A stretch of 64,000 bases of DNA from Escherichia coli (GTDB taxonomy: Bacteria > Pseudomonadota > Gammaproteobacteria > Enterobacterales > Enterobacteriaceae): NCBI RefSeq assembly GCF_003334355.1, contig NZ_QOWP01000002.1. One strand, written 5' to 3'. Position 1 is the stretch's first letter; the number at the start of each line of letters is the position of its first letter. Below the pieces are notes generated by a model. That model was not told where the DNA came from and did no database searches. It saw only the letters and a program-made list of their open reading frames with translations. A program made the translations under genes and the position numbers. Below are positions 58,276 through 59,178 of the stretch, piece after piece.

Positions 58276-59178
58276 ATGACCGAATCAACAACATCCTCCC
58301 CGCATGATGCGGTGTTTAAAACCTTTATGTTCACACCCGAAACCGCACGGGATTTTCTCGAAATACATTTACCAGAACCACTGCGCAAGCTTTGCAACCT
58401 GCAAACCTTACGCCTGGAACCCACTAGTTTTATTGAAAAAAGTTTACGCGCTTACTACTCGGATGTTTTGTGGTCCGTGGAAACCAGCGACGGTGACGGC
58501 TATATCTACTGCGTGATTGAACATCAAAGCTCTGCAGAAAAGAATATGGCTTTTCGGCTAATGCGCTATGCCACTGCCGCCATGCAGCGTCACCTGGATA
58601 AAGGCTATGACAGAGTTCCGCTGGTGGTGCCATTGCTGTTTTATCATGGCGAAACATCGCCCTACCCGTACTCACTTAACTGGCTGGATGAGTTTGACGA
58701 GCCGCAACTTGCCCGGCAGTTGTACACCGAAGCTTTTCCGTTGGTGGATATCACCATCGTACCTGACGATGAGATCATGCAACATCGGCGTATAGCTCTG
58801 CTGGAACTGATTCAAAAGCATATTCGCGACCGCGATTTAATCGGCATGGTCGACAGGATCACCACGCTTTTGGTTAGAGGCTTCACTAATGACAGCCAGC
58901 TACAAACACTGTTTAATTATCTGCTGCAATGCGGCGATACCTCCCGTTTCACCCGTTTTATTGAGGAGATTGCCGAACGTTCACCACTACAAAAGGAGAG
59001 ATTAATGACTATTGCTGAACGGCTACGGCAGGAAGGGCATCAAATTGGCTGGCAGGAAGGTATGCATGAACAAGCCATTAAAATTGCTTTGCGCATGCTG
59101 GAACAGGGCATTGATCGTGACCAGGTGCTCGCGGCCACCCAGCTAAGCGAAGCCGATCTGGCAGCGAATAACCACTAA
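58276..59178 (+). CDS. rpnB: Rpn-family (YhgA-like, PD-(D/E)XK transposase_31) recombination-promoting nuclease
   Basis: 300-aa [32 protein letters not shown]...; family recognised by sequence; K-12 name yfaD. Confidence 0.88.
59005..59178 (+). CDS. Candidate nested in-frame small protein (57 aa) from an internal start in rpnB, RpnS-like
   Basis: In-frame ATG at residue 244 of RpnB preceded by AAAAGGAGAG (GGAG 6 nt upstream); product [57 protein letters not shown]; no expression data. Confidence 0.4.

Follow-up and report, generated by a model that had tools for sequence, protein, structure and literature searches.

An internal translation start in Escherichia coli rpnE and the nested C-terminal small protein RpnE-S

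The question raised by the locus considered here is whether a single open reading frame of 300 codons also encodes a second, much shorter protein, read in the same frame from a start of its own, and, should this be so, which function that protein could have. The frame, corresponding to full-length RpnE (RpnE-L), occupies positions 58276–59178 on the plus strand of the window, by which we mean the whole analysed stretch of 64,000 nucleotides of E. coli DNA. A sequence-only reading of the window had noticed, close to the 3′ end of the frame, a strong Shine-Dalgarno (SD) sequence ideally spaced from an in-frame ATG (about 59005, codon 244), had proposed that a nested protein of 57 aa is produced from it and had interpreted the locus as a one-gene toxin/antitoxin defence module. 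As detailed below, everything that it stated about the internal site itself holds, while the name given to the gene has to be changed and the functional interpretation has to be restricted in part.

As for the name, the gene had been labelled rpnB, which is wrong, yfaD being rpnE. Indeed, the 300-aa protein scores 704 bits against the NCBIfam equivalog NF007418 (the rpnE-type model; cutoff 583), 429 bits against the RpnA model, which is under the cutoff of the latter, and 176 bits against TIGR01784 (cutoff 52); the locus lies between glpC and yfaU; the RefSeq name is rpnE in a strain showing 100% identity with the window across 58000–59400; in MG1655, rpnE is b2244 and rpnB is b2305 (yfcI, beside hisP); and in the paper that named the family RpnB is YfcI and RpnE is YfaD (Kingston 2017, PMC5350276). 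The N-terminal part of the protein (residues 8–209; 58297–58902, plus strand) is a PD-(D/E)XK nuclease / Transposase_31 (YhgA-like) domain (Pfam PF04754, E = 8.6e-88), in which D11, D63, E82, Q84, R94, D165 and the PDDE motif are all kept, the first five of these residues being needed for the activity of RpnA. Of 5426 E. coli genomes, 5421 have retained the gene, and its neighbours are metabolic (glp and rhamnonate genes), with no obvious defence island and no flanking defence genes. No model of PADLOC-DB 2.0.0 (2023), a library that may predate the Rpn report, matches the RpnE of the window; the standard annotation of the gene is 'ISNCY family transposase' only, without any small-protein feature. 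Downstream, between the convergent rpnE and yfaU, a consensus scan returned a GC-rich, terminator-like hairpin (59186–59212, no strand assigned), which is weak evidence, since the scan yielded one site against the 1.4 expected by chance.

The internal SD of rpnE, AAGGAG, is found at 58993–58998 of the plus strand and forms the core of AAAAGGAGAG (58991–59000); a spacer of 6 nt separates it from the ATG of the internal translation initiation site (iTIS) at 59005–59007, the sequence before this ATG being cactacAAAAGGAGAGattaATG. The ATG is codon 244 of the frame, given that (59005 − 58276)/3 = 243, and a start at this position gives a product of 57 aa, that is, the C-terminal end of the 300-aa ORF. 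The energy of the duplex with the anti-SD amounts to −8.7 kcal/mol at the internal site, to be compared with −3.8 at the start of rpnE itself, which is weak; by this measure the internal site is the 7th of the 496 in-frame ATGs in the long ORFs of the window, the stronger ones being mostly true gene starts. Because duplex energy also flags G-rich sequence other than an SD (as at 27831, in a shadow ORF), a strict count of SD cores was added to the ranking: a 5-mer core at the right distance precedes only 3 of the 420 internal in-frame ATGs of the window, the rpnE site included, and one of the three is the start of glpB, which overlaps glpA. The sequence-only reading had also held the site to be a better ribosome-binding site than most true gene starts in the window, a statement confirmed by comparison with the 38 RefSeq-annotated starts (median −6.0) that were placed on the window by sequence mapping, 35 of which are outscored by the internal SD. 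The SD and the AUG lie in an unpaired loop, the local RNA structure not being significant (z = −0.18). Taken as a whole, the internal SD-ATG of rpnE is far beyond chance, and the strength of its SD comes close to the consensus. As a separate observation on the window, it is not collinear with strain 2013C-4974, the ato operon being present in the window and absent from that strain.

The conservation of the site can be followed at three levels, that is, among the paralogues of K-12, among the Rpn loci of other Enterobacterales and among E. coli genomes. In the alignment of rpnA to rpnE that had been proposed as a check, GGAG is found 6 nt before the aligned ATG (codons 242–245) in all five K-12 paralogues, despite the different peptides encoded at the SD (KE in rpnA, rpnB and rpnE, GGE in rpnC and RE in rpnD), as well as in the free-standing ypaA, whose start is preceded in K-12 by the same SD-ATG sequence as the internal start of rpnE. 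The codons involved are disfavoured ones; indeed, by the usage of the window, AAG accounts for 21% of Lys, GAG for 33% of Glu, and AGG and AGA for 2.6% and 1.9% of Arg, and the rare codons AGG, AGA and GGG are used at Rpn SD sites. For the second level, species-representative genomes were scanned with a pattern of the N-domain motif PDDEIMQHR, a choice that is independent of the start site and therefore unbiased for it, and 69 Rpn loci were obtained from Citrobacter, Klebsiella, Serratia, Pantoea, Erwinia, Rahnella, Kluyvera, Salmonella and several Escherichia species. The SD-ATG is kept across all 62 Enterobacterales loci with complete tails (62/62), the ATG being at the aligned column in 60 and one codon earlier in two. 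A 4-mer SD core is present upstream of the iTIS in 90% of these loci, whereas elsewhere in the same genes it precedes 0% of the equally conserved EIMQHR ATGs and 7% of 603 other in-frame ATGs. At codon −4 the residue varies (K in 32 loci, G in 18, E in 11 and R in 1) and the third base, with 1.29 bits, shows stronger conservation than the two before it, a pattern expected where it is the RNA, and not the protein, that is constrained. Finally, a 41-nt segment containing the SD-ATG is found with essentially no change in 5302 of 5426 complete E. coli genomes (97.7%), and the SD-ATG segment is invariant in every intact E. coli rpnE allele examined and before every downstream ypaA-type copy; a site not conserved among orthologues had been named beforehand as the outcome that would speak against an internal start, and the site is, on the contrary, kept at each of these levels.

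The nested ORF, rpnE-S (59005–59178, plus strand), codes for a putative cognate antitoxin and oligomerisation domain, as suggested by NCBIfam, AF2 and Foldseek. Its 57 residues match positions 244–308 of the rpnE-type NCBIfam model and 244–291 of the RpnA model, and the internal ATG aligns with M244 of RpnA. When the PDB was searched with the window protein alone, the sole meaningful match was 7TH0, 'RpnA-S', a chain of 49 aa the Met1 of which is aligned to Met244, and with respect to which the tail of the window has an insertion of 8 residues in the first helix. The AF2 model of the tail, based on an alignment of 33 tails, has helices at residues 3–33, 38–45 and 49–56 (pLDDT 77), and Foldseek again places 7TH0 on top of the PDB structures resembling it (probability 1.00, target-normalised TM 0.75), with nothing else close; RpnE-S is predicted, on this basis, to be a three-helix RpnS domain with a long first helix. 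The match to 7TH0 in a PDB search with the tail profile is partly circular, the RpnA tail having been in the alignment, so that homology rests on NCBIfam, the single-protein search and Foldseek. Designed pentatricopeptide and 'Pizza' proteins, which came out on top in the tail-profile search, are artefacts, being sums of individually insignificant repeat matches.

The first helix, which starts with the strongly conserved peptide MTIAE, contains a region of four-amino-acid repeats, delimited by alignment gaps and allele lengths (59035–59070, plus strand). The lengths of Rpn tails step by four, 51 of the 59 sampled being equal to 1 modulo 4; xxEG-type units in helix 1 account for the differences among the rpnE tails of E. 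coli, which have 56, 57, 60, 65, 76 or 88 aa, and downstream ypaA-type copies have 61, 65 or 73 aa. Hypervariable repeats of just this kind have been described for RpnS. The allele of the window has the smallest repeat number seen; TRF detected no tandem array in the DNA of its tail, and found an array with a 24-nt period in a long allele.

If the site, its strength, its conservation at the nucleotide level and the homology of the tail to RpnA-S were obtained here, initiation at the site and the presence of a detectable small protein are established by the literature on identical DNA of K-12. The window and K-12 rpnE are 100% identical over 58740–59102; published initiation data therefore apply to the exact sequence and the finding is an already known one, in that both the internal start and the idea of RpnS as an antitoxin are in the literature and the rpnE site confirms known biology. 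In particular, Ribo-RET peaks have been reported at in-frame iTISs of all five rpn genes, where they apparently mark major initiation sites, together with a raised synonymous-site conservation at the yfaD iTIS and a resemblance of the C-terminal product of RpnE to YpaA (Meydan 2019, bioRxiv 10.1101/520783); at the iTIS of K-12 rpnE, both Ribo-RET and Onc112 peaks are seen (Meydan 2019, bioRxiv 10.1101/520783; Zhong 2023, PMC10400941). SPA-tagged small proteins, including RpnE-S and YpaA, have been detected from all five rpn genes, and the same authors cite dRNA-seq evidence for transcription starts inside all rpn genes, as well as a short internal transcript that exceeds the full-length mRNA in abundance (Zhong 2023, PMC10400941). 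The internal ATG of rpnE is, as already published, the start of RpnE-S.

The statement of the sequence-only reading that Rpn nucleases are held in check by intragenic C-terminal small proteins is correct: the Rpn genes have been described as genes-within-genes toxin-antitoxin systems, in which the internally initiated C-terminal RpnS blocks the long nuclease RpnL (Zhong 2023, PMC10400941). In that work, for which the crystal structure of RpnA-S was also determined, RpnS was found to block the toxicity, the SOS induction or the nuclease activity of RpnL in the case of RpnA, RpnB, RpnC and RpnP2, the S proteins being specific to their own L form and the repeat number setting the specificity; protection from phage was observed for the plasmid-borne RpnP2 only. 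Overexpressed K-12 RpnE, by contrast, showed no activity when assayed for toxicity, SOS induction or stimulation of recombination (Kingston 2017, PMC5350276), and it is annotated 'inactive' in MG1655. The one-gene toxin/antitoxin defence module is thus a good reading at the level of the family, and the internal start that it calls for is present; for RpnE itself it goes beyond the demonstrated cases, toxicity and antitoxin function having been shown for the four proteins above, and as applied to this locus it would be an extrapolation from the paralogues.

The explanation that we consider probable is that AAGGAG-N6-ATG (58993–59007) is the translation start of RpnE-S and that RpnE-S, by homology, pairs with the nuclease RpnE-L and silences it. 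RpnE-S would be a three-helix protein with the sequence of the C-terminal tail of RpnE-L, translated in the same frame by independent initiation at 59005, which in K-12 would probably occur for the most part on a shorter mRNA made from an intragenic promoter; such a transcript would provide the cell with more S than L. For the internal transcript we rely on the K-12 dRNA-seq cited by Zhong 2023 (PMC10400941), since a scan of 58050–59300 for the sigma-70 consensus found no internal promoter and per-site conservation revealed no clear conserved −10/−35. By homology with RpnA, RpnB, RpnC and RpnP2, RpnE-S would use its long first helix to pair with its counterpart domain, of identical sequence, in RpnE-L, and the PD-(D/E)XK nuclease would be kept silent in an L2S2-type complex, the specificity between S and L depending on how many four-residue repeats helix 1 contains; the nuclease would then be freed once S is lost or the complex falls apart, as might happen upon phage infection or under alkaline conditions. 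The binding of S to L, the inhibition, the toxicity of RpnE-L and an antiphage role are thus the properties that the paralogues would lead one to expect of RpnE, by homology only.

The allele of the window differs from that of K-12 both in the arrangement of the tail and in the N-domain. In K-12, rpnE codes for 299 aa and is separated by 12 nt from a downstream ypaA (61 aa), which has the same SD, whereas in the window there is a single rpnE of 300 aa without a downstream ypaA. The tandem rpnE-ypaA junction occurs in about 59% of E. coli genomes, and the arrangement of the window is found with at least 99% identity in 1329 genomes. According to a three-way alignment of the DNA of the window tail, K-12 rpnE-S and K-12 ypaA, the window corresponds to K-12 rpnE-S from the SD to 59102, including two diagnostic SNPs and a missing 12-nt KLEG unit, and is of the ypaA type from 59103 through the 3′ flank (the part of the tail concerned being 59103–59178, plus strand); the switch point lies inside 59063–59102, 40 nt that are identical in the three sequences. 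The tail could result from collapse of an rpnE-S/ypaA tandem by unequal recombination, a possibility that fits the DNA mosaic; nevertheless, a single-tail state may be ancestral, and this is at least as likely as a collapse, because a single AANNH-type tail without a downstream copy is shared by E. albertii, two other Escherichia species, O157:H7 and KFu015. In the N-domain, the window has L107, E142 and P155 in place of the Q107, D142 and L155 of K-12. Residue 155 belongs to the near-invariant motif FPL(V/I)D and is a proline in 67 of the 69 sampled family members; among 5421 E. coli genomes, 4535 (84%) carry the exact 61-mer of the P155 type and 356 (6.6%) that of the L155 type of K-12, these last being, among the matches listed, K-12 laboratory derivatives.

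SD-like sequences internal to genes have been proposed to slow elongation, and the strong conservation of MTIAE implies that the Met alone is no proof of a start; an SD-like sequence and a Met that are incidental to a conserved peptide, or a translational pause of the internal SD type, would leave the cell with no separate protein at all. Very little credence can be given to such a possibility, which is largely refuted by published data: the GGA/GGAG core persists although the encoded residues shift among K, E, G and R, it is the third base of that codon that is most conserved, and rare codons are in use; an identical SD-ATG drives the free-standing ypaA; for identical DNA, peaks from profiling specific to initiation have been published, as has the detection of a tagged small protein; and mutation of the homologous SD and of M244 in RpnA abolishes RpnA-S (Zhong 2023, PMC10400941). 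As a control, mutation of the SD and ATG was carried out in rpnA and in an rpn gene of C. difficile rather than in rpnE (Zhong 2023, PMC10400941), and immunoblots with a C-terminal tag cannot by themselves tell cleavage from internal initiation, two points in favour of a small C-terminal product released from full-length RpnE by proteolysis. Retapamulin and Onc112, however, trap only initiating ribosomes and yield peaks at the rpnE iTIS; moreover, the SD is under strong selection at the nucleotide level, and a predominance of the short internal transcript is cited by Zhong 2023 (PMC10400941), so that proteolysis deserves next to no weight.

More serious, though still unlikely in our opinion, is the proposal that RpnE-S is indeed translated and that RpnE-L is a decayed, inactive nuclease, in which case the small protein would be a leftover or a stable relic of the module, or would act elsewhere, for instance on other Rpn paralogues as an orphan modulator. 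Since K-12 RpnE-L was inactive on overexpression in three assays (Kingston 2017, PMC5350276), in agreement with its annotation in MG1655, there may be no toxin for RpnE-S to neutralise; in addition, by the repeat-matching rule, S-type copies would fail to neutralise the neighbouring L form. Against this proposal, the inactivity was measured on the K-12 allele, with L155 at a position where nearly all family members have a proline, and thus on a type far rarer among E. coli genomes than the P155 type of the window. Toxicity may also have been masked by RpnE-S, which was probably co-expressed from the constructs employed, as argued for RpnA and RpnB by Zhong 2023 (PMC10400941), and S proteins were found by the same authors to be specific to their own L form; furthermore, the catalytic residues are all intact, and the gene is kept in almost every E. 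coli genome. A tentative suggestion, which we regard as possible and no better than that, is that the inactivity of RpnE is an artefact of the K-12 allele and that the allele of the window could be a functional, self-contained RpnE-L/RpnE-S module, possibly of defence and maybe in the ancestral single-tail form; the reasons are the consensus P155, the intact catalytic residues, the presence of one minimal-repeat tail and the absence of an extra ypaA. As the functional tests of RpnE rest solely on the minority P155L allele of K-12, the label 'inactive' may not fit most E. coli, the strain of the window included, and a strain with a single tail, minimal repeats and no ypaA offers a clean background in which the toxicity of RpnE-L and its neutralisation by RpnE-S can be addressed. 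The point on the P155 allele and the single-tail arrangement are the only, and modest, additions to the literature consulted; the main value of the analysis is as a check of method, a gene within a gene having been correctly spotted from raw sequence alone.

Coming back to the probable explanation, namely that RpnE-S is started internally and silences RpnE-L, its components can be compared with known systems. The closest is RpnE-L/RpnE-S of K-12 (yfaD, b2244; Meydan 2019; Zhong 2023), which shares with the window the locus glpC-yfaU, the SD and ATG at codon 244 and residues 1–34 of RpnE-S, and differs from it in having ypaA/rpnE-Ss downstream and a tail ending in FEREIVLATTQLTDADIPNCH, the tail of the window being of the ypaA type. 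RpnA-L/RpnA-S (yhgA, PDB 7TH0) has the same domain layout, an iTIS at M244 with AAGGAG 6 nt upstream, identical first 11 residues and a three-helix fold; the tail of the window is 8 residues longer than RpnA-S in helix 1, corresponding to two four-amino-acid units, and helices 2 and 3 have diverged. Toxicity, inhibition of the nuclease and the L2S2 complex, demonstrated for RpnA, are putative for RpnE. The plasmid-encoded RpnP2-L/S of ECOR13 has the family architecture, as described by Zhong 2023 (PMC10400941), but is strongly toxic without S and protects against T-even phages, and its plasmid location contrasts with the chromosomal and, in E. coli, near-universal rpnE of the window. Outside the family, Cas10d/Cas11d and the C-terminal isoform of ArcB resemble Rpn in that a 3′-proximal in-frame iTIS yields a C-terminal domain partnering or modulating the full-length protein; the proteins and their functions are unrelated, and among these systems only Rpn is a toxin-antitoxin pair with hypervariable four-amino-acid repeats.

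The rpnE allele of the window differs from that of K-12 at codon 155 (58738-58740), which specifies proline in the window and leucine in K-12, and at codon 107 (58594-58596), which specifies leucine and glutamine, respectively. P155 is common to the window, to seven other sampled E. coli alleles and to 67 of the 69 family members, and L107 is the E. coli residue in the window and in seven other sampled alleles. A 61-mer of the L155 type is carried by only 356 of 5421 genomes, those among the matches listed being mostly K-12 laboratory derivatives; given the rarity of this type, the published result that RpnE is inactive (Kingston 2017, PMC5350276) rests on a minority allele.

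The two loci also differ at the 3' end of the gene, where ypaA, the free-standing RpnS-type gene lying downstream of K-12 rpnE, is absent from the window (59063-59230 compared with 2485-2925 of the K-12 locus). At the DNA level the window tail is a mosaic, its 5' end being of the K-12 rpnE-S type and its 3' end, together with the 3' flank, of the ypaA type; it represents either a collapsed tandem or the ancestral single-tail state, and the single-tail form is also present in other Escherichia species. In E. coli IPCEC48, AF6, HR5-1 and MSB2_1A, RefSeq labels the downstream ypaA-type copies, taken to begin right after the rpnE stop codon, as N-terminally "incomplete" pseudogenes; in fact an intact SD-ATG lies 15 nt past that stop in all of these copies, the encoded products are 61-73 aa long, and the annotation problem looks systematic for free-standing RpnS genes.

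The internal start of the window allele lies in a TAATG context (59003-59007), in which its ATG overlaps the TAA stop of a 38-aa ORF in the +2 frame (58889-59005). This arrangement probably arises by chance from the Leu-Met codons TTA-ATG, in place of which TTG-ATG is used in several E. coli alleles and downstream copies and in other Escherichia species. Eight nucleotides past the rpnE stop, between the convergent rpnE and yfaU, a GC-rich hairpin with a 10-bp stem (59186-59212) is a candidate bidirectional terminator, consensus-scan matches in the area being at chance level.

When the alignment of RpnS tails was run as a profile against PDB, high summed scores were obtained to designed pentatricopeptide-repeat proteins, each being the sum of many weak matches to 'GK.eeAL.ia..Ml..Gi.pd.vt..T'; the scores probably reflect a helical-hairpin resemblance inflated by the repeats rather than homology.

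In E. coli E1620, an ISEc23 (IS66-like) insertion truncates rpnE at codon 222 (locus positions 1276-1941), with loss of the internal start and of the tail, and the locus is therefore dispensable in at least some strains. In strain 2013C-4974 the rpnE region is 100% identical to window 58000-59400, yet the window comes from another strain, since 2013C-4974 is without the atoSC/atoDAEB segment. In the window this segment is the approximately 7.2 kb between rcsC and yfaP (21402-28664), with genes for AtoC, a thiolase and the alpha subunit of acetate CoA-transferase, and is the same region as in K-12.
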